From: Chamaesiphon sp.
GTDB taxonomy: Bacteria; Cyanobacteriota; Cyanobacteriia; Cyanobacteriales; Chamaesiphonaceae
Assembly: GCA_965246715.1 (NCBI GenBank)
Contig: CBDFFH010000002.1
Span: 32,001-96,000, forward strand
Direction: 5' to 3'
DNA length: 64,000 nt
The position numbers and the translations under genes were made by a program. Shown piece by piece: positions 1 through 14,089 of this stretch; position 1 is the stretch's first letter; the number at the start of each line of letters is the position of its first letter. The notes beneath the pieces were generated by a model. It had not been told where the DNA came from. It made no database searches and saw only the letters and a list, made by a program, of their open reading frames with translations.

Positions 1-810
1 ATCTTGGATCTTAAAGGCAAGATCGATTGGGGTGGTTGTATGCCAGAGGGTTTGGGCGGTATTGTAGATGCTAGTAACTAATGGAGCGTTTTCAGAATGA
101 AGAAGGTCATGACTGTTGATGAGTTGTTGGCTCGCTATGCTGCTGGGGAGAGAGATTTCAGTGAAATTAGATTGGTCGGTATCATTGGCAATCGAACCTT
201 TAATGGCTTTAGCTTGAAAGATGTTAACTTGAGTGGGGCTAACTTTAGCAAGGGGTACTTTTTGGATGGTCAACTGGAGCGAGTTAACTTGAGTGGGGCT
301 AATTTGAGTGGAGCTAGAGTGACAGATATCATGATCGAGGATGTCGATCTGAGTGGGGCTAATTTGAGTGAGGCTGTCTTGCAAGGTGCTAGTGCTAGAA
401 GCACTTCCATGGAAGGAGCTAACTTCGAGAATGCCATCTTGGCTGAGTCGGGAATGGATGATTCCTGTCTCAACAATGCTAATTTCAGCGGTGCCGAACT
501 CTGTGAAGCATTCTTCACAAGATGTACTTTTACAGGTGCTACTGTCAATATCAACGAACTTCGCGGTTGTTATCTGACTGAAACCCTTTTGCCCGATGGA
601 GAGATTGTTACCAACGGCATCCAAGATTGAGTTGGCTGCAAAATTTTCATCTGCTAATAGTGATGCGCTACTAGGTAATAGTCCATCACTTCTCGATTCA
701 ATTGCTTCTTCTATAAAATCTGGCAACTCTGATAAGAAATCATAGTTAGTTAGAGTCTCAAGGTAATTAATACTCACCCGCCAGTCTTGCCATCTATTCC
801 ACTCAGAAAC
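1..810 (-). pseudogene. 5'-truncated fragment of a large protein: NucA-like DNA/RNA non-specific endonuclease C-terminus followed by a long linker; frame continues beyond the window start
   Basis: Manual translation shows no stop from 837 down to 1 on the minus strand. It begins VSEWNRWQDWRVSINYLETLTNYDFLSELPDFIEEAIESRSD, resembling the W..VS...LE.LT.YDFLS C-terminus of NucA-type nucleases, and ends ...TPIDLAFKIQD at base 1. The upstream in-frame stop is at 838-840, just beyond a REP-like palindrome at 811-830. The only possible start nearby is GTG at 777. Confidence 0.7.
97..630 (+). CDS. Pentapeptide repeat protein
   Basis: N-terminal ELLARYAAGERDF motif typical of cyanobacterial pentapeptide proteins, repeated (A/V)NLSG units, C-terminal LPDG. 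Confidence 0.9.
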   Translation: MKKVMTVDELLARYAAGERDFSEIRLVGIIGNRTFNGFSLKDVNLSGANFSKGYFLDGQLERVNLSGANLSGARVTDIMIEDVDLSGANLSEAVLQGASARSTSMEGANFENAILAESGMDDSCLNNANFSGAELCEAFFTRCTFTGATVNINELRGCYLTETLLPDGEIVTNGIQD

Positions 811-1061
811 GTAGGGTGGGCACTGCCCACAGACAATTTAGAGCCGAAGTCATGAGAACTTAAACTGTTTTTATCGATCGAGAAATCACTTCACCAATCG
901 ATCGAGCTTAATCACCTAAATCCTCGCATTACTAAATCGACAATGGTGCTTAAACTGTTTGCTTCGATCGAGAAATCCCTTCACTAATCGATCGATACTA
1001 ACAGACCCAAATATTTATATTACTAAATCGACAATGTGCTGGTGGATATTACCCACCCTAG
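811..1061. repeat. REP-like pair enclosing two ~90-bp tandem units
   Basis: GTAGGGTGGGCACTGCCCAC at 811-830 and a degenerate inverted copy GGTGGATATTACCCACCCTAG at 1041-1061. Between them, two units (~859-948 and ~949-1040) share CTTAAACTGTTT, TCGATCGAGAAATC and ATTACTAAATCGACAATG. Confidence 0.75.
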
Positions 1062-1276
1062 GGGATATTTGATGTTATTCACCAATTTCTAAATTCATCA
1101 AACTAGCTACATCTTGAGTTAACTGGATAAAATAACCGCAGCATCAATCGTAAATGGTTTCTCTGCCATTGCGATCGCGCAAGCCTGTCTCAACCTGTCG
1201 ATATTGGCGGGGGTGAGCAATGACGATCGATTCGCTAATCCGATCGAGCCATTACTTCCAGATTAGCTAAAATCAA

Positions 1277-4200
1277 TTAGACTACAACCTCCTCGCTAGC
1301 AAGTTGACTGAGGAATTGGAGCGACTTGAAAATATAGTTCGCACAAGTAGCTGGCGAACTTTGATAAAAAGCACGCCACGCAAATGATTTGTAGCGATCG
1401 TAATTAGCTGGCTCGAAGGCGGTACGATCGAGTTGGATATCGACGATCTTTGGTAAGTCTCGATCCAACCAAGCGAGTCGCACGGCATGTCCGATCAGGA
1501 CATCGAGCACGATATATTCTTCGATTTTTAGCTCGGGATTATGTTCTGATAAAGCGGCTAAAGCCATCAGTGCTTCGATGTTTAATTTACGATATTCTGG
1601 TGCAACAATTTTATTGAGAAGATGCTCGATTCGGAGGGCAAATTTCTTCTCGCCTGGGGTCATTTCGGCTAAGATTAACTCGCTATCGAGTCGATTGCGT
1701 TTTTCTAATTTATCGCCAATTGTCAACCCCTTACAATGTTCGAGCAATCGCCAGATACTCGGATAGAAATCTCGATCGACTCGCGCGATCGCGCCTTCTT
1801 TCCGACGTTGGTACAACCAATTTATCGAGGGCAAATCTAGCTCTGTCGTGGCATTGACGATCCATTCGATCCGATCCTGTGACTGGTTCAAATGTAAAGA
1901 TTCTTGCTGGAAGACGGTTTTACCTAAATCTTGATAGTCTGCCAGAACTTTATTGAGTCGCGTTTGGATTTCAAATGGACTCAGTTCCATCAATTTTTCA
2001 TAAGCTTCATCTTGAGTAATTTTTAACTCCATCACTAGTTCGCTAGTCAGTAACACAATCAAATAACCAACTCTTAATGTTAGCAACCCTTTAACCAATT
2101 GTGGCTGAGATTTGATTAATAACCCGAGATAAATAATTACTTCCTGTGTCAAGACGCGATCGCGAATATCTTCCCGACAAAAGAGATCGATTTTTTCGAC
2201 AATTTCAGTATGCGACATCGGTGCGGCGATCGCGGCATCTTCGCTATAAGCCATCCCTACCGTAATTTGTTTACCACTAATCAATATATCTGTCACCGCA
2301 TCTGATAAACTGATATCGACCTTGCCTAATAATCCCGCAGCATAGCGCACGATCGCCCACTGTGGACGATTGCTAAAACTTCCGGCCTTAAAATAAACTT
2401 CATCGAGTAAATTAGCCACAGTTACCTTGACGATCGCACCGCCGAATCCAGTATCGAATTCCAATCCTTTTAAGCGTTGGAGGGTATGTAATAGTTCGAT
2501 TTGCTGATAGAGATTTTCAGATGCGCGCAATTGCTTGAGCAGCAGTGAAGTACTTGTTTCTGCCTCTAATAAAAATTCTTGAGTATTAGTTAATGGCTGA
2601 TTGCGATCGGGATTGTAAGCTAAATAGTATTGTTTGGGTACTTGCGGATCGATTCTTGTTGCCTCAAATTTAAATGAGTTCAAATTATCGATGCGTTCGA
2701 TTCCCGCTGTAAGCTTCAATTGATTGAGCGCTCCCAACCGAATTGGCACGTCATTACATTTACCTTGTTTGAGTTCGGCAATTAGTTCTAATAATGGCGA
2801 AGCATATTGTTGCCCCTGGAATTCATCTTGACCTTCTTGTAATAACAATTTAGTCAATAATAGTGTCAGTGTCGGTCGGCCTAATTGCGTCCAATGTTCG
2901 CTAATATAGGCAATCTCTGTCTTAATTTGTGATACCAGAAAATGGTAATCGAGCGTGAGATAAAATTGTTGGCTATCTAAAAACGCGGGCAGAAATACGA
3001 TCGTTTCGCCCCGAATACTAAAGATCCGCGAAGTTGTCAGACTCCGCAAGCGTCGAAACGGACGACCAGTTAAGCCTAATTTGTCATTGCGGCCAATTTG
3101 GGTATACGCAGCGGCTAGTTCTGTCGATTGACGCACTTGGATCGGCTCTAATTGCGCGGGTATTTGCGCGGCAATGCCATATTCAGCCAGTTGTGCTTGT
3201 AATTCTTCATCTTCAGCAATTAACGCGATTTGCACCGTGCGACGACGTTTGTTTCCAATCCGTAAGTGTCGCCCCAATGGATCTAAATCTCCTGGTGCGA
3301 GAAAGCGATCGAATAATAGTTCGCCCAGGAAATATAAACTTTGCGCCCAAACTAGGGGTAAATTATCATTTGGCAGTCGCGCCTGACTGTGTGGCTGTGC
3401 TTTCTCGGCTTCAATTTTATCTTTAGGAACGTAATATAGTTCTGGCAATAATTGGATCCCATCGCGGTCTACTAATACGCTTGACAGCAATCCCCGATAC
3501 TTAGTGATTTGAGCGGTATCGCCACTAAATAACGCATCGAGATATAAATAAGTGAAAAATAACGGCCATTCACACTCGATCCCTTCAAATTGGAGTAATT
3601 CTGTGGGTTCGTAATGCAGCCGGGTATGATCTTCGATGACTGTTTGATGCCCGTCGCGCAAGAATCGCTTACAGCCATATTTACCTTCCAATTTCTCGAC
3701 GATCTTCGTGCGCGTCCGCTCGACTAATTGCGGATCTGTCACGGCAAATGCTGGAAATCCGATCGCACTCAACAATGCGGCATCGGTTTCTTTGGAACTC
3801 GACTCGCGCGGTAACAGCGATGCCAATGTCAAGCGCGCACGTGCGATTTCATCTGGTAAAACGTGAATCACCGAAGCCTGAGAACCCCGCGCCCCAAATA
3901 AGTCTAAACCATTAATTGCTTCGAGTGCCGCTTTAGCCATCCCGATCGAGCTGGCATTTAATTCGACGCTGCCATGATTGATCTTATCGCCGCGCTCCCA
4001 CAGTCCATAATCGGGCGTACGATAGGTGCGTCCGATATAATAAACCAAATTTTGGACGAAATTTACTTCATCCTGAGTATAGATACATGGCAATCCCGAT
4101 GCGGTCATTTGCGCCAGCACGAGGATAAATAATGAAGTTGCATCCAATTGCAGATGTCCCCACTCATCGTCACCGACAACGATATCCCCCGTTTGCGTAC

Positions 4201-4552
4201 TGTATTTGGCATGAAGTGCATCTAACGGCGATTGCGTCTGCTTGAATTGCTCGACCTTATCTGCTTGCCGCAACATGCAAAATAGCAACCCGCGCATCAA
4301 CTTCACGACGCTCTGCTCTAACTCAAACAATCGCCCTGGCGGGGCATCTACTTTCCGATAAGCCAGTGCCAATCCCCACACGGCCAAGATCGTATATACA
4401 TTGTCCCGAACCCAGGCATCTGTATAGTCTCCATGTGCGGTAATCGCCGTACTCGCCGGAAACAATCCCGTAATCGGATTTTGACGATCGAGGATAATCG
4501 ATTGAATTTGTTGATAGTATCGATCGAGTTGGACAGAGCGGTTCGGATTCAT
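1277..4552 (-). CDS. Glycoside hydrolase family 15 / phosphorylase-b-kinase regulatory subunit-like protein
   Basis: 1091 aa with DAWVRDNVY, HLQLDATSL, DYGLWERGDK, RFLRDGHQT and ECEWPLF motifs. Confidence 0.9.
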   Translation of the reverse strand: MNPNRSVQLDRYYQQIQSIILDRQNPITGLFPASTAITAHGDYTDAWVRDNVYTILAVWGLALAYRKVDAPPGRLFELEQSVVKLMRGLLFCMLRQADKVEQFKQTQSPLDALHAKYSTQTGDIVVGDDEWGHLQLDATSLFILVLAQMTASGLPCIYTQDEVNFVQNLVYYIGRTYRTPDYGLWERGDKINHGSVELNASSIGMAKAALEAINGLDLFGARGSQASVIHVLPDEIARARLTLASLLPRESSSKETDAALLSAIGFPAFAVTDPQLVERTRTKIVEKLEGKYGCKRFLRDGHQTVIEDHTRLHYEPTELLQFEGIECEWPLFFTYLYLDALFSGDTAQITKYRGLLSSVLVDRDGIQLLPELYYVPKDKIEAEKAQPHSQARLPNDNLPLVWAQSLYFLGELLFDRFLAPGDLDPLGRHLRIGNKRRRTVQIALIAEDEELQAQLAEYGIAAQIPAQLEPIQVRQSTELAAAYTQIGRNDKLGLTGRPFRRLRSLTTSRIFSIRGETIVFLPAFLDSQQFYLTLDYHFLVSQIKTEIAYISEHWTQLGRPTLTLLLTKLLLQEGQDEFQGQQYASPLLELIAELKQGKCNDVPIRLGALNQLKLTAGIERIDNLNSFKFEATRIDPQVPKQYYLAYNPDRNQPLTNTQEFLLEAETSTSLLLKQLRASENLYQQIELLHTLQRLKGLEFDTGFGGAIVKVTVANLLDEVYFKAGSFSNRPQWAIVRYAAGLLGKVDISLSDAVTDILISGKQITVGMAYSEDAAIAAPMSHTEIVEKIDLFCREDIRDRVLTQEVIIYLGLLIKSQPQLVKGLLTLRVGYLIVLLTSELVMELKITQDEAYEKLMELSPFEIQTRLNKVLADYQDLGKTVFQQESLHLNQSQDRIEWIVNATTELDLPSINWLYQRRKEGAIARVDRDFYPSIWRLLEHCKGLTIGDKLEKRNRLDSELILAEMTPGEKKFALRIEHLLNKIVAPEYRKLNIEALMALAALSEHNPELKIEEYIVLDVLIGHAVRLAWLDRDLPKIVDIQLDRTAFEPANYDRYKSFAWRAFYQSSPATCANYIFKSLQFLSQLASEEVVV

Positions 4553-6351: not shown

Positions 6352-6483
6352 GCAAAGTCCGCCTTCGCGGACTAATAAACTAGTCCGCGAAGGCGGGCTT
6401 TTGCCGCTCGCGGCAACAACCGGACTTTGCACTCTGAGGAGCGGTTTCTAACCGCTTTGCTGATAGGTAGCAACTTGAGTTAA
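6352..6483. repeat. AGTCCGCCTTCGCGGACT hairpin repeat with nested 27-nt insert and a MITE end
   Basis: Inverted pair AAAGTCCGCCTTCGCGGACTA / TAGTCCGCGAAGGC; 6431-6481 is nearly the reverse complement of ~42831-42881. Confidence 0.75.
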
Positions 6484-6514
6484 GTAATTTTGTCAGCTGC
6501 CCCTGGGCAAATTA

Positions 6515-7930
6515 CTAAGAAGCTCTGACAATCCGCTGGGGCAAGAGTGGCGCAGTAGCACTCGATCCTCGCGCAGTAGGTGCGAGTAATGATTGAGCGA
6601 GGAGGTGACGATAAAGGTCGCTGAGTTGAACGGCGACACCAGCCCAACTGAAGTTTTGTTGAACCCTGGCTGAAGCCTGTTTGCGAATTTTGCGCGTCCA
6701 GATATCGTCAGTTAAAATTCGTTCGATCGCGTTAGCAAAGCCATCGACATCCTGCGCTGGTACTAGCAATCCAGTCTCTTCAGAAATCACTGTAAACTTC
6801 AGACCCCCAACATCCGAAGCCACTACAGGAGTGCCACAAGCCATCGCTTCGATCGCGACTAACCCAAAGGGTTCGTAGTGACTGGGAATCACGCAGACAT
6901 CGGCAGCTGTATAGTATAGCGGCAAGCGATCGTGTCCGACCATCCCGACGAATTCAGTATTAGCGATTAAGTCCAATTCCGTGACGATCTCTTCGATCCG
7001 ACGACGCTCGGCACCATCAGCTTCGAGCGGATCGCTCCCACCGACGACTAATAATTTTAAGTGTTGCGGATCGATTTCTTCACCTCGATCCAATTTGCTG
7101 CGCAATTCGCCCATTGCCCGCACGAGCGTTTCGATGCCCTTGCGTTTGTCAAATCGACCGACATACAACACGACTTTTTCCTTGGCGGGGATGCCAAGTT
7201 GTTTGCGGGCTTCCGCTTTAGAAATCGGACGGAAGTTGCCAATATCCGTCCCACAGGGCACGATATCGATCTGACCGAGGTCGGAAACCAATTTGCGTAA
7301 ATCGTTACGCTCTTGAGGGCTAGTCGCTACTACCCGCTGCGACTGTTCGAGAATTTGTTTTTCTACCTCCAATCGCGTTTTGGCAATTTCCGGAATCTCA
7401 TCGACCGCGAGGTACTTCACCGCACCGAGCGAATGATAAGTATGTAATAGTTGGATATTTTGGCTGCGTTGGAGTTGCAATCCTACCCACCCAGACATCC
7501 AGTAATTGGTGTGCGCTAGCGGATAGTTAGTGCCTTCTTTTTGCTGGAACTTCTGAAATGCCTTGACGAATTCCGGCATGTATTGAAATAACTCGTCACG
7601 CGGAATATAGGTCTCGGGGCCAGCCGTCAACCGAATCGTGCGACAGTGTGCGGAATGCTGGACGATCGTGGGGTCGTAGGGGCTACTCTTGCGAGTGAAC
7701 ATATCTACTTGCCAACCCAACTTCGCTAGTGCTTCACCGACTTGTCTAACGTAGACATTTTGACCACCAGCGGCATCTTTGCCAATTTCAGCAGCCGGAT
7801 CGCCATGTTCGGAGATCAGCGCGATCGCTTGACGGGTGGGAATTTTGGCTGGGGAGATCGGGAATGGATGATGGGATTGTGTTGTAGGAACGTTCTTAAC
7901 GATCGTTGTGGGAAATTTTCCGGTTGACAT
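6515..7930 (-). CDS. GT4 glycosyltransferase (SPS/MshA-like)
   Basis: HGDP..IG...AGGQNVYV, HTYHSLG, GRFDKRKGIETL and PSHYEPFGLVAIEAMACG motifs. Confidence 0.9.
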   Translation of the reverse strand: MSTGKFPTTIVKNVPTTQSHHPFPISPAKIPTRQAIALISEHGDPAAEIGKDAAGGQNVYVRQVGEALAKLGWQVDMFTRKSSPYDPTIVQHSAHCRTIRLTAGPETYIPRDELFQYMPEFVKAFQKFQQKEGTNYPLAHTNYWMSGWVGLQLQRSQNIQLLHTYHSLGAVKYLAVDEIPEIAKTRLEVEKQILEQSQRVVATSPQERNDLRKLVSDLGQIDIVPCGTDIGNFRPISKAEARKQLGIPAKEKVVLYVGRFDKRKGIETLVRAMGELRSKLDRGEEIDPQHLKLLVVGGSDPLEADGAERRRIEEIVTELDLIANTEFVGMVGHDRLPLYYTAADVCVIPSHYEPFGLVAIEAMACGTPVVASDVGGLKFTVISEETGLLVPAQDVDGFANAIERILTDDIWTRKIRKQASARVQQNFSWAGVAVQLSDLYRHLLAQSLLAPTARGSSATAPLLPQRIVRAS

Positions 7931-8234
7931 ATCTGCACCTCAATAAAAAATCAATCTCGATCGGTAAATTTAAGTTCAGCACCCGAGCGCTCGATCGCAT
8001 CGTGGATAATGAGCCAAGATGTAGAATCCGAAGTAATTACTCCAAAGGGCTACAACCTGTTTAACGCCCAATTTTTGCCTTGTTGCGCGGCGTTATCGAT
8101 CTGCTGAAACATTGACTCGATCGGTGGGAGATTGTCACTCTTGCCGAACGACGCGCAAGCGCGACAAATCTAGTTAGTCTGTAAAAGTGGATGTTGCTGT
8201 CAAATTCTCCTCGGCGGAGTCCTGGCAACCAAAG

Positions 8235-9302
8235 CTATCTCGAGCCGACAAGATGGCCATTATGGACGAATTTATCTGCCAAAACCTTTTGATATACAGC
8301 TTCGTAGCCTGCGGTCATTTGAGCGACGCTAAAGCGGTGGGCGACATATTCGCGACAGCCTGCGCGCGAGATCTTCGGAATTTTCGCTACCGCTGCGATA
8401 CAGTCGGCGACGGTATTGCAGATATAACCACTGACTCCATCGACAATAATTTCCGGCACCGAACCGAGATTCATGGCAATGACGGGCGTACCCGCCGCCA
8501 TCGATTCGATCGTGACTAGCCCAAATGGTTCCCGCCAATTAATTGGGAATAACGTGGCAATCGCTCGACCCATCAGTTCGTTTTTCATCAAGTGGTCGGC
8601 TTCACCCAAAAACTGAATCTGCACGCCGTCGATGTGTGGCTCGATCTCCTGCTGGAAATATGCCACATCGACAGGATCGACTTTGCCAGCCATTTTCAAG
8701 GGGATACCGGTTGCTTTGGCAATCTCGATCGCTCGATCGGGGCCTTTTTCAGGCGAGATCCGGCCGAGAAATGCTAGATAAACAGGTTCGTCAGCAGTTG
8801 GGAAGAAATGATGCGAACTGACATCGATGCTGTTGTAAACCGTTGCGACATGATTTAAGCCCAGCCGATCTTCCCGCTGGGCATTGGAAATGCTGACATA
8901 CGGTTGCGTCTTGGCATAAGCGAACATCTTCTCATTGTCTGGAGTGAAGATGCCATGCAGTGTGTGAATTGTCGGCGTTTTGGTCAGTTTGCTATAAGGT
9001 AGCGCCGCGCAGCCCATATGTGAGTGAATCAGATCGAACTCTCCAGCTCGTTCGTACACCTGAGCTAACTGGAGCATTTCATAAATGCCAGGTTCCACGA
9101 TCGTGGGATCTAACCGTAATGCTTGAGGATGGATCGACTCTAGTTTCGCGGCGGTAATCGAATCTCCCGATGCAAATAGAGTAACGTCATGCCCTCTGGC
9201 GACTAACTCATCTGTTAATAGTCCGACTACTAATTCTATCCCTCCATATGCTGGTGGGGGAACCCGTTCCCACAAAGGTGCAATTTGGGCAATTTTCATC
9301 AT
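8235..9302 (-). CDS. GT4 glycosyltransferase
   Basis: VPPPAYGGIE, FLGRISPEKG and WREPFGLVTIESMAAG motifs. Confidence 0.9.
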   Translation of the reverse strand: MMKIAQIAPLWERVPPPAYGGIELVVGLLTDELVARGHDVTLFASGDSITAAKLESIHPQALRLDPTIVEPGIYEMLQLAQVYERAGEFDLIHSHMGCAALPYSKLTKTPTIHTLHGIFTPDNEKMFAYAKTQPYVSISNAQREDRLGLNHVATVYNSIDVSSHHFFPTADEPVYLAFLGRISPEKGPDRAIEIAKATGIPLKMAGKVDPVDVAYFQQEIEPHIDGVQIQFLGEADHLMKNELMGRAIATLFPINWREPFGLVTIESMAAGTPVIAMNLGSVPEIIVDGVSGYICNTVADCIAAVAKIPKISRAGCREYVAHRFSVAQMTAGYEAVYQKVLADKFVHNGHLVGSR

Positions 9303-11540: not shown

Positions 11541-12833
11541 TCACACAAATAAGCGTAGCAAAGTAAAGATACTAGCACTAAGTAGTGAAGCGATCGGAAT
11601 TGTCACGATCCAGGCTAAACCGATCGATTTGAGAGTATCGAGGCGCACATCTTGCCAATTTTTCACCAGTCCTACGCCCACCACCGCACCGACTAAAGCA
11701 TGGGAAGTCGAGACAGGTAAACCCAATCGGGAGGCAATCAAAATCGTCGCAGCGGTGGCAAGTTCGGCCGCAAACCCACTACTAGGTTCGAGTTTGATAA
11801 TTCCCTCGCCGATCGTGGCAATAACGCGCTCGCCCCAAATTGCTAAGCCAGTGACGATCCCGATTCCACCGAGTACGAGTACCCACAGCGGAATTTCGAG
11901 ATTGGCGAGTGGGACGGTACCAGTTTTTTGGATGAAGAGGATCGTGGCTAAGGGCGCGATCGCATTACCGACATCATTGGAGCCATGAGCAAACGCCACG
12001 CAGCACGCACTCAGGAGCTGAAATCTCGCTAATTGTCGCTCGACAATCTTGCGTGCATCCAAGTTGCTAGCTAATTGCATCGGTGAGGGGATGAGTTCGT
12101 CGTCTGGCAATTTAGTTGTCAAGCGATCTTCAGCTAGTTTGCGCCAGCCGACGAGTGTAATTGCTAAAGCAGCCAGCCCACCCAATCCCAGGGCAAAATC
12201 ATGGCGGGGAACTGCGGGGAGAAAATCTAACGGGAGAGTTTCAACGACGGGTGGTAAGACAATTACCCCAAATACACCAACGAGAATCAGTGATAACCAC
12301 GGCATCCAAGTATCGATTTGCACCAGTGGTTCGTCGCGATCGAGAATCCAATATTTAATCAGCGAATAAAAGCCCGCCGCCACCACTGCGCTTACTACCG
12401 GAGTAACCACCCATGCCAAGGAAATTACGCCCAATGCCGACCATGATACTGCCTGTGCGCCTGCGGCAACCCAGCTGAATCCAGCGATCGCACCCACAAC
12501 TGCATGGGAAGACGCAACGGGTAAGTTTTTGGTAGTAGCAATTTGCAACCACAAGCCACAACTAATCAGTACCGCGATCGTCCCGATTAATAATGTTTGT
12601 GGTTGGGTGATAAAAACATCAGGATTTGTGATACTAGTAGCTAGAGTTGAAGCCACCTGTCTGCCAAATAATACCGCACCGGTAAACTCTAAAATTCCGG
12701 CAATGACGATCGCTTGTTTGAGCGTCACAGCTTTAGATCCGACAGAAGTTCCCATCGAGTTGGCAACATCATTAGCACCGAGATTGCAAGCAACATAAAA
12801 TGCTAGAAAGCAGACAAACACAAGAAATAACAT
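11541..12833 (-). CDS. pit: PiT family inorganic phosphate transporter
   Basis: GANDVANSMGTSVGS, HGSNDVGNAIAP and PVSTSH motifs. Confidence 0.92.
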   Translation of the reverse strand: MLFLVFVCFLAFYVACNLGANDVANSMGTSVGSKAVTLKQAIVIAGILEFTGAVLFGRQVASTLATSITNPDVFITQPQTLLIGTIAVLISCGLWLQIATTKNLPVASSHAVVGAIAGFSWVAAGAQAVSWSALGVISLAWVVTPVVSAVVAAGFYSLIKYWILDRDEPLVQIDTWMPWLSLILVGVFGVIVLPPVVETLPLDFLPAVPRHDFALGLGGLAALAITLVGWRKLAEDRLTTKLPDDELIPSPMQLASNLDARKIVERQLARFQLLSACCVAFAHGSNDVGNAIAPLATILFIQKTGTVPLANLEIPLWVLVLGGIGIVTGLAIWGERVIATIGEGIIKLEPSSGFAAELATAATILIASRLGLPVSTSHALVGAVVGVGLVKNWQDVRLDTLKSIGLAWIVTIPIASLLSASIFTLLRLFV

Positions 12834-12995
12834 TGCGCTAGCGATGAGGTGAGTAAAATTAATCCATTGGTGTCGTCAATTTTAACCCAGCAATAACGGC
12901 AGATGAGGCGATCCAGATCGATCGACACAAACCAAGCGCGATATTAGGGTAGAGCGGCTCTGCCAAAGATTCATAACCGATAATTCCTAATTTTT

Positions 12996-13256
12996 ATGGC
13001 ACAACACAATCCCCATAGCATTCAACTCCAAATCAATCGGATGTTCGAGAGCGGTCAATCATTATTTGCGATAACCAAAGTTCAAGATTGGCTCAAACAA
13101 AGAAATGAAGATCCCAACGATTACGAAATTATCTTTAACAAACAACCCGCACCTGTCGGTTCGCGAGCGGTGATGACCGTCACCACCCAATTGCGCCGTA
13201 AAGATGGACAAACTGTCGATGAATGGTTATTAACTCAGTTAAACGATCTGGCATAG
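12996..13256 (+). CDS. Small hypothetical protein
   Basis: Clean 86-aa ATG ORF directly upstream of the WecB/TagA gene. Confidence 0.7.
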   Translation: MAQHNPHSIQLQINRMFESGQSLFAITKVQDWLKQRNEDPNDYEIIFNKQPAPVGSRAVMTVTTQLRRKDGQTVDEWLLTQLNDLA

Positions 13257-13317
13257 CTTGACAATCGATCGGCAAAGATTGACGATGAACACAATATCAA
13301 ACACTCCTGCTACTTTC

Positions 13318-14089
13318 ATGTTCGATCGCAAGGTTACACCGCTACCACAATTCGAGATTCTAGATCAACCAGTAAATCTAGCTGATGATTATGTCGGCTG
13401 GTTGGTCGATCGGCTCCAACAGGGAATTGGCAGCCATGTTGTCACTATGAATGCCGAGATCGTCATTTATGCAAATCAACACCCTGAATTCGCCCAAATC
13501 GTTCGACAAGGCAGACTTAATCACACCAGATGGTTCGGGGATTATTTTAGCCTTGCGGTTACATGGGATCGTGCAGCGTAAGTATGCCGGGATCGAGCTG
13601 GGTGAAGATCTATTGCGGTTAGCTGGTAAACCAGAGCATAATTATCCGGTTTTTTTCTATGGTGGCAAACCCCAAGTAGTCGAAAAAGCCGCGAAAAAGT
13701 GGCAAACCGATTTGCCGGATCTAAATATTGTTGGTGTCCAGCATGGTTACCTCAACCCCGAGGAACAAGCCAAACTCGAACACCAATTGACCGTTACCCA
13801 ACCCAAAATTATTCTGGTAGCAATGGGGGTACCGCGTCAGGAGATGTGGATTCGCGAACATTTTCATTTGTGTCCGCAGTCAATTTGGATCGGTGTCGGT
13901 GGCAGCTTTGATGTCTGGTCGGGAGTGAAAAAACGTGCGCCGCAACTAATTCGTAATTTGAATTTAGAATGGTGCTATCGGACGCTTCAAGAGCCTAGCC
14001 GCTGGCGGAGAACGCTGGCCTTACCCCAATTTGCAGTACTGGCATTAGGTGAGAGAATTTGGCGCAAGGGTAAGCTAGTACCGAATTAG
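13318..14089 (+). pseudogene. WecB/TagA/CpsF glycosyltransferase split by a one-base frameshift
   Basis: N-terminal HVVTMNAE..EFAQIVRQ is in one frame; ADLITPDGSG..FFYGG..VAMGVPRQE..GVGGSFD..LEW is in another. There is an extra G at 13510-13511 (CAA-G-GCA). The start could be 13285 or 13318. Confidence 0.8.

Follow-up and report, generated by a model that had tools for sequence, protein, structure and literature searches.

A pentapeptide-repeat gene of the cyanobacterium Chamaesiphon sp. lies wholly inside, and antisense to, a fragment of a giant exoprotein gene. In relatives, where the arrangement is intact, the overlap is a selected inner gene within a stop-free spacer of the host frame, and the pentapeptide gene and the neighbouring nuclease domain vary together as a swappable module between conserved flanks. 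On the sequence evidence, we think it fairly probable that the pentapeptide protein is the cognate inhibitor of the variable NucA-type nuclease of a giant, likely type I-secreted surface protein, and that the copy described here is a nuclease-less spare immunity cassette between two REPs. The window is the whole stretch of 64,000 nt that was analysed (G000:C2:32001-96000), and positions refer to it unless a contig or locus is named.

The nested gene and its truncated host frame

The gene at 97..630 on the plus strand is intact and encodes a 177-aa pentapeptide-repeat protein (Pfam PF00805, E 1.7e-23, 82.3 bits against a cut-off of 20.2), likely a nuclease inhibitor. As the original prediction had stated, it stands in exact antisense register with a minus-strand frame that has no stop from 837 to 1 (279 codons), and TTA, CTA and TCA are absent from it despite 19 Leu and 14 Ser codons. 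Under the codon frequencies of the other pentapeptide genes in this genome, the lack of antisense-stop codons in this gene has P = 1.8e-4, and 0/27 control regions (other pentapeptide regions of the same genome) were free of antisense stops. When the minus frame was extended to the left of the window, it stayed open as far as G000:C2:30432 (window position -1568), for 802 codons in total, with the stop at G000:C2:30429-30431. The pentapeptide protein is predicted to form a quadrilateral beta-helix (pLDDT 95), and its model matches HetL, Np275/276, QnrB1 and MfpA with a Foldseek probability of 1.00. An N-terminal helix with an ELLxRYAAGERDF motif is followed by the beta-helix and a C-terminal LPDG cap, the net charge being -12; N-termini of the ELLxRYAAGERDF type are present also in ordinary pentapeptide genes of the same genome. 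A metagenome scan with this pentapeptide returned 16 loci at identities of at most 36%, and the parent gene was not found among them. The best identity of the window gene to the relatives examined is at most 39%, and the selection figures given below come from the relatives' copies. A promoter and terminator scan gave results at chance level.

On the minus strand, 1..807 is the right part of the 802-codon host frame, itself a fragment of a giant exoprotein gene. In the direction of that frame, it starts with the C-terminal ~45 residues of a NucA-type (Endonuclease_NS) nuclease, whose active site is absent (673..807), continues with a Ser/Thr/Gln/Ile-rich, stop-free linker read from the antisense strand of the pentapeptide gene (97..630), and ends in the window with a conserved spacer (1..96) before the DLPTGQLAE/HExGH domain; on the plus strand, this spacer is the upstream region of the pentapeptide gene, with GGAG at 83-86. 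Left of the window, the minus-strand frame goes on with the HExGH domain (here HEMGH), Big_9/Cadherin_5 and one PKD domain.

The NucA-type C-terminus that had been suspected outside the overlap was recovered with a nuclease profile that was built from relatives and, among PDB entries, is closest to Anabaena NucA (E 3.5e-77). The last 48 positions of this profile align with residues 11-55 of the minus frame (807-673) at 34.9 bits, with 8.3 bits as the best of 1000 shuffles, whereas the 279-aa minus translation had no match in Pfam. In addition, this tip shares 31/47 residues with the end of the intact nuclease at L208, which is the best-scoring partner locus of family f18 for both the window nuclease tip and the window pentapeptide, the pentapeptide score being modest. 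Only profile positions 224-271 of 282 are present, so that the catalytic core is missing. Of the nuclease-bearing frame that had been proposed, the C-terminal tail of the nuclease thus stands, but the catalytic GH..N..E part does not; the window has no working nuclease, and an intact one was rejected as a candidate. The codons at 808-837, originally counted as part of the gene, turned out to be a REP repeat.

On the right of the fragment, a GTAG-type REP (811..830, plus strand) has its GTAG end toward the cassette and lies 3 nt from the start of nuclease homology. On the left, homology to the intact giant gene stops within ~10 nt of a second, inverted REP at G000:C2:30426, a few nt past the host stop. 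The right border also carries an internally deleted REP/RAYT transposase locus (805..1253, no strand assigned), three collinear pieces of which match a RAYT locus of contig C21, while ~355 nt and ~80 nt are missing. The large multi-domain host with an antisense-pentapeptide linker that had been envisaged exists in relatives, but the window copy is a REP-bounded, truncated fragment of it. No stop and no frameshift interrupts the 802 codons, which suggests that the fragment was captured recently. Contig C36 of the same genome bears a paralogue whose nuclease is complete (PF01223, E 7.7e-16); with it come a nested pentapeptide gene of divergent sequence and both a REP and a RAYT gene.

By eye, the minus-strand genes at 1277-4552, 6515-7930 and 8235-9302 are ordinary ones, the first for a glycoside hydrolase 15/phosphorylase kinase-like protein and the others for glycosyltransferases. 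Counterparts of the 1277-9302 genes that look almost identical are found in another genome (G011, locus L060), with an IS and a pentapeptide fragment close by. Two reverse transcriptases of the group II intron type, both fragmented, were recognized by eye to the left of the window (L001:2805-6355 and 6459-8204), and the same locus holds a DUF4351 fragment and a Gp49 (RelE-like)/HTH toxin-antitoxin pair that sits between REPs.

The intact nested locus in relatives and selection on its two frames

In 41 genomes (the organism's own and 40 relatives), the region lay within open frames as long as 9,337 and 10,783 codons, and intact host frames of ~8,500-11,600 codons occur across Chamaesiphon, Nostocales, Altericista and others, the closest named records being Chamaesiphon. 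The conserved HExGH domain, in which His-Glu-x-x-His is invariant (23/23), was matched in 13/26 other genomes of the genus, in 31/301 genomes of family f7, where many frames have 10,000-11,600 codons, and in 10/401 genomes phylum-wide, several of them weakly. Named carriers are Anabaena, Nostoc, Calothrix, Aulosira, Cronbergia, Tolypothrix and Altericista, several on plasmids; for two plasmids, the PLSDB tables list the giant CDS alone and not the nested gene. The first part of the giants holds CARDB, He_PIG and Big domains together with a weak RHS signal (PF05593, E 7e-6 and 2e-5) and propeller domains, and from the nuclease on the order is Endonuclease_NS, linker, HExGH, Big_9, many PKD and Calx-beta or DUF4114. 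PF01223 scored above its cut-off in 6/7 proteins scanned, the seventh being a truncated copy.

Conservation of the overlap and its link to the nuclease, both part of the original prediction, were confirmed: all 28 nucleases that are in frame with a linker (28/28) have an in-register, antisense-stop-free pentapeptide gene. Their catalytic residues are kept for His in 27/28 (the 28th is cut by the locus end), for Asn in 22/28 and for Glu in 27/28. More generally, 57/64 anchored records have a pentapeptide gene on the opposite strand, starting 60-111 nt from the anchor, with 55 in register and 2 frameshifted. The other seven comprise three pattern misses in which the gene is present, one duplicate, one record cut by the contig end and two that truly have no gene (L095 and L102). 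The 57 nested genes encode 120-318 aa, with a median pairwise identity of 30%. Of the 150 top-ranking nuclease representatives in a large library, 89 terminate with the nuclease; 28 run on into the linker and 33 into other tails.

Several arrangements were seen besides. Two different modules of nuclease plus nested pentapeptide share one 8,564-codon frame (L167 and L211, G135:C83). In a related giant (L148-L149, G604:C1), whose frame has 10,758 codons, an RHS core is present and HExGH is immediately preceded by an unidentified toxin-like domain, with no nuclease in that place and no nested pentapeptide gene. Antisense ORFs of 285-331 codons opposite the post-HExGH region (L064:761-1705, L100:788-1642 and L095:1755-2747) are probably due to codon bias. 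Plasmid NC_019772.1 carries a cmr operon of CRISPR type III-B, ~3 kb upstream of its giant gene (L168:1-6422).

Antisense stops are avoided throughout the homologous nested genes. They account for 3/10,186 codons in the 57 genes, all in two broken copies, against 255/5,067 (5.0%) in the 27 control genes from other pentapeptide regions of the genome. An open antisense frame could arise as a chance or codon-bias by-product of the pentapeptide repeats, and the available text of one study describes long antisense ORFs in prokaryotes as common and mostly unselected (10.1101/724807); the host linker, unconstrained in its amino acids, fits this explanation. We consider it highly improbable, and in fact already largely refuted, given that the controls (open in 0/27 genes) and the un-nested f18 partners described below (open in 0/13) are closed, and that the frame links a Pfam nuclease to Pfam Ig/PKD domains inside ~10,000-codon frames annotated as single CDSs.

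Selection was measured in 8 independent pairs of >55% identity (6 pairs for the nuclease, 7 for the HExGH domain). The host linker had a pN/pS ratio of 0.88, compared with 0.37 for the pentapeptide frame, 0.30 for the nuclease and 0.39 for the HExGH domain. The pS of the pentapeptide (0.48) is near that of the flanks (0.51-0.53), indicating that the host amino acids in the overlap are nearly free. One orphan-orphan pair gave a pentapeptide dN/dS of 0.43, and a non-independent pair from a single genome gave 0.75. Selection on the inner frame, taken together with these nearly free host amino acids, identifies the overlap as a selected gene in a stop-free spacer. Dual coding, as it had been suggested, applies in the weak sense that the host frame stays open, but beyond openness there is no constraint on the linker amino acids (0.88). 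Dual coding at the amino-acid level was rejected, since synonymous change in the inner gene is not reduced and the linker has a pLDDT of ~21. In the AlphaFold model of nuclease-linker-HExGH from which this value is taken (mean pLDDT 47), the nuclease is mostly at 70-90 and the HExGH domain is too low to interpret.

Un-nested partners, module exchange and REP borders

A nuclease-profile search of 301 genomes provided natural controls in which the two genes do not overlap. In family f18, the nuclease forms the end of large proteins and is followed by a separate, non-overlapping pentapeptide gene in 13/13 scored cases (11 convergent, tail-to-tail, and 2 co-directional), showing that an internal position of the nuclease is not required. 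These partners use antisense stops freely (179/3,118 codons, 5.7%); a few with few antisense stops (2/156 and 4/157) may be recently un-nested. Reading through the f18 nuclease stop revealed no preserved linker and no fixed register. Stand-alone NucA, in turn, has NuiA (PF07924) tail-to-tail at 13/24 loci, a count based on 14 candidate ORFs picked by eye, 13 of which matched PF07924. The idea that the pentapeptide is inseparable from its nuclease had to be given up, as partners are un-nested in f18 and the pentapeptide gene often occurs without a nuclease.

Closely similar nucleases in different layouts have similar partners too (ranks 1, 2 and 2). Over all f18 nucleases, the pentapeptide of the nearest nested nuclease was in the top 3 of 25 for 4/13 only, and the remaining 9/13, all cases of weakly similar nucleases, had ranks of 8-20. 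In a nuclease tree from a quick search, stand-alone NucA is set apart as its own clade (17 rows, SH-aLRT 99), and nested and C-terminal forms interleave with at least 5 forced changes, which does not fix the direction of origin. At L204-L205, giant genes and nuclease tips alternate with pentapeptide genes, and a run of further pentapeptide genes stands at the end. Arrays in f18 were seen at this locus (G097:C98:111600-134800) as well as at L200-L209 and L212-L213, including alternating head-to-head pentapeptide clusters.

Across 26 copies, mean identity is 0.36 for the nuclease and 0.34 for the pentapeptide, compared with 0.64 for the HExGH domain, and four copies whose HExGH domains are 93-96% identical bear quite different modules. 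The nearest neighbour of a pentapeptide is that of its nuclease in 13/26 copies and that of its HExGH domain in 3/26. The partial Mantel correlation is 0.30 with the nuclease (p 0.005) and 0.14 with the HExGH domain (p 0.14). The distance correlation is modest (rho 0.30), and adjacent DNA co-transfers whatever its function. Given this adjacency and the non-independence of kin, the module data show a recombining unit and not binding.

The GTAG-type REP has 89 copies in the genome, some of them beside a Y1 transposase gene; the Y1_Tnp matches scored 22.3, 24.1 and 20.1 bits, close to the cut-off of 23. In a search within 700 nt of the pentapeptide stop, a GTAG hairpin faced the cassette in 21/27 truncated copies, versus 3 weak non-REP hits in 25 nuclease-bearing copies; the orphan set included L110, which is cut by the locus end only. 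REPs stand at both ends in only 5/28 truncated copies, a RAYT gene lies within 3.2 kb in 13/27, and L153 and L162 are tandem cassettes. Other REP-bordered cassettes in this genome hold deaminase+SUKH, AHH+Imm11 and Gln_amidase+Imm35, and REPs also border three RHS fragments with downstream genes, one of which is a pentapeptide-GUN4 gene. The REP-bordered regions are L217:2776-12369, L218:9746-13633, L219:3493-5523 and 11867-14000, and L220:3621-8680 (contigs C21, C55, C35 and C36), in four REP-rich regions of the genome chosen by eye for REP density and not at random. The presence of such REP-bordered toxin-immunity pairs places the window cassette in a cargo class of toxin tips and immunity genes. 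Some REP/RAYT- or IS-bounded fragments have no pentapeptide gene (L102, L095 and one on G000:C38). The last of these is a tiny REP-adjacent scrap of the giant gene with ~40 codons of the start of the HExGH domain (G000:C38:151400-151800). DUF4351/Rpn-like genes were often noticed, by eye, on the other side of REP-bordered cassettes.

A candidate immunity function and its rivals

For the nested pentapeptide, an immunity role is likely the best reading. In the mechanism that we propose, a cytoplasmic acidic beta-helix would bind and block its own type of nuclease, as NuiA does NucA, while the giant would be exported by type I secretion, so that its C-terminus would have to stay free. Type I secretion reads a C-terminal signal, and if the C-terminus is needed for export, an internal warhead with an embedded antidote gene would be favoured. 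Nuclease and antidote would then travel together on one exchanged piece of DNA, the nuclease may be set free by the HExGH domain acting as a protease, and REP/RAYT activity likely excises and re-plants pieces with the antidote gene, which could give protection against the nucleases of other strains. We know of no entry route into target cells. Type I secretion genes indeed flank several giants: the G337 giant is followed by an ABC/C39 transporter, HlyD and a PPIase, and HlyD adjoins the G011 giant. No type I secretion gene is listed in the 50 kb shown around the NC_019772.1 giant, and no GGxGxD repeats were found near the C-termini of the giants, several of which have a C-terminal domain rich in Gly and Asn in common. 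The nested proteins are acidic, with a pI <5.5 in 55/57 and a median of -4.6 charges per 100 aa versus -2.5 in controls; control pentapeptides are acidic too (17/27), as are most nuclease domains (pI mostly 4.4-6.3), and charge therefore does not show DNA mimicry. A wider reading is that of a polymorphic nuclease warfare among cyanobacteria on ~1-MDa type I-secreted adhesins, with a swappable warhead in mid-protein, an antisense-nested, DNA-mimicking pentapeptide as antidote, and REP/RAYT elements that cut out and stockpile the cassettes. This wider reading we regard as tentative and lean slightly away from.

The same inhibitor might instead serve a household purpose, keeping the cell safe from a nuclease tethered to an adhesin, whose digestion of extracellular DNA would serve nutrition or the remodelling of biofilms, much as in NucA/NuiA, with no warfare between strains and with the orphans as REP debris. 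The closest solved relative is the secreted NucA, the giants consist mostly of Ig/PKD/CARDB/Calx-beta adhesin domains, no delivery domain was identified in them, and the fragments that have no pentapeptide gene would also fit. We find this unlikely because nuclease and pentapeptide are ~35% identical although the flanks are up to 96% identical, because nuclease tips come in tandem arrays with their own partners, and because the orphan-orphan pair retains a pentapeptide dN/dS of 0.43 and the same REPs border known toxin-immunity pairs. A slightly smaller probability goes to the pentapeptide being a linked passenger or a non-inhibitory protein (chaperone, regulator or gyrase protector), trapped by a two-gene fusion across it and persisting by an unrelated function of its own. 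The N-terminus shared with ordinary pentapeptide genes, the co-transfer that adjacency alone yields and the weakness of the charge evidence are in line with a passenger. However, the pairing survives three layouts (nested, convergent and co-directional) and is repeated tip by tip in arrays, the pentapeptide gene takes the position of nuiA, and it diverges at the rate of the nuclease and not of the flanks. We therefore continue to favour a cognate nuclease inhibitor.

MfpA, Qnr and AlbG have gyrase as their target. PDB titles likewise name gyrase and not a nuclease as what they act on; they have the same beta-helix fold as the window pentapeptide (Foldseek) with a sequence identity of only 11-19%, and the cyanobacterial HetL and Np275/276 are closer Foldseek matches. 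Some protective pentapeptides have been proposed to inhibit proteins that bind DNA, according to the available part of PMC7159879. With NucA/NuiA of Anabaena sp. PCC 7120 (PDB 2o3b and 1zm8; PF01223 and PF07924), the system shares the nuclease family, the catalytic motifs and a small partner gene placed tail-to-tail on the opposite strand, NuiA being described in the accessible text of PMC13522737 as protecting the cytosol. Unlike in NucA/NuiA, the nuclease is here a hypervariable internal domain of a ~10,000-aa protein, and its partner is a PF00805 pentapeptide beta-helix nested in the coding sequence and not NuiA (PF07924). To polymorphic toxins of the Rhs/CDI type, as presented in the portion of Zhang et al. 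2012 that was at hand (PMC3482391), the likeness lies in a large repeat-rich protein with a variable nuclease module and a cognate small gene, and in orphan tip/immunity cassettes and polyimmunity-like arrays, which here are a matter of genomic layout only. Those systems have a C-terminal toxin and a separate immunity gene, whereas here the nuclease is internal and the partner antisense-nested; a variable toxin domain on a conserved large scaffold was found in our giants as well, and the toxin is C-terminal in f18 only. The same portion of PMC3482391 has 0 occurrences of "Pentapeptide", "NuiA" or "T1SS".

Among the GH-E His-Me finger toxins, a YjbI-like pentapeptide gene lies beside a toxin gene for which no immunity gene is annotated (Jablonska et al. 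2017, PMC5714182, partial text). They belong to another nuclease group in a T6SS context, and the text available to us reports no overlap and does not call the pentapeptide an immunity protein; the excerpt of PMC10933656 adds nothing further on a nuclease-pentapeptide neighbourhood. REPtrons resemble the borders described here in their GTAG-tagged hairpins by Y1 transposase genes, with cyanobacterial examples known, but no capture of toxin-immunity cassettes is described in what was accessible of PMC3733652, whereas here REPs stand at cassette breakpoints. Antisense nesting of a nuclease and a pentapeptide is undescribed in the literature searched, which included few subscription papers and left supplements aside; such loci could be listed in Additional File 1 of PMC3482391. 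In summary, the system works like NucA/NuiA and like a polymorphic toxin-immunity pair, yet it fails the defining features of both, as the partner is not NuiA and the toxin is not C-terminal.

Fully nested antiparallel pairs that are functional on both strands are thought to be rare in prokaryotes. The nesting described here is a case conserved over several cyanobacterial families, and with it come stop avoidance, selection resolved by frame, and natural controls in which the genes are not nested. To our knowledge, most cyanobacterial pentapeptide proteins have no known function, and our observations offer a testable one, with a candidate new class of nuclease inhibitors of which dozens of natural cognate pairs exist. 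They also point to a conflict system, as yet undescribed, of cyanobacteria that form mats and biofilms, and suggest a role of REP/RAYT elements in collecting immunity genes. If this is true, the stockpiling of cassettes would be a host-beneficial job for RAYT transposases, and the DNA-mimicking pentapeptide beta-helix would be a new class of nuclease immunity protein.
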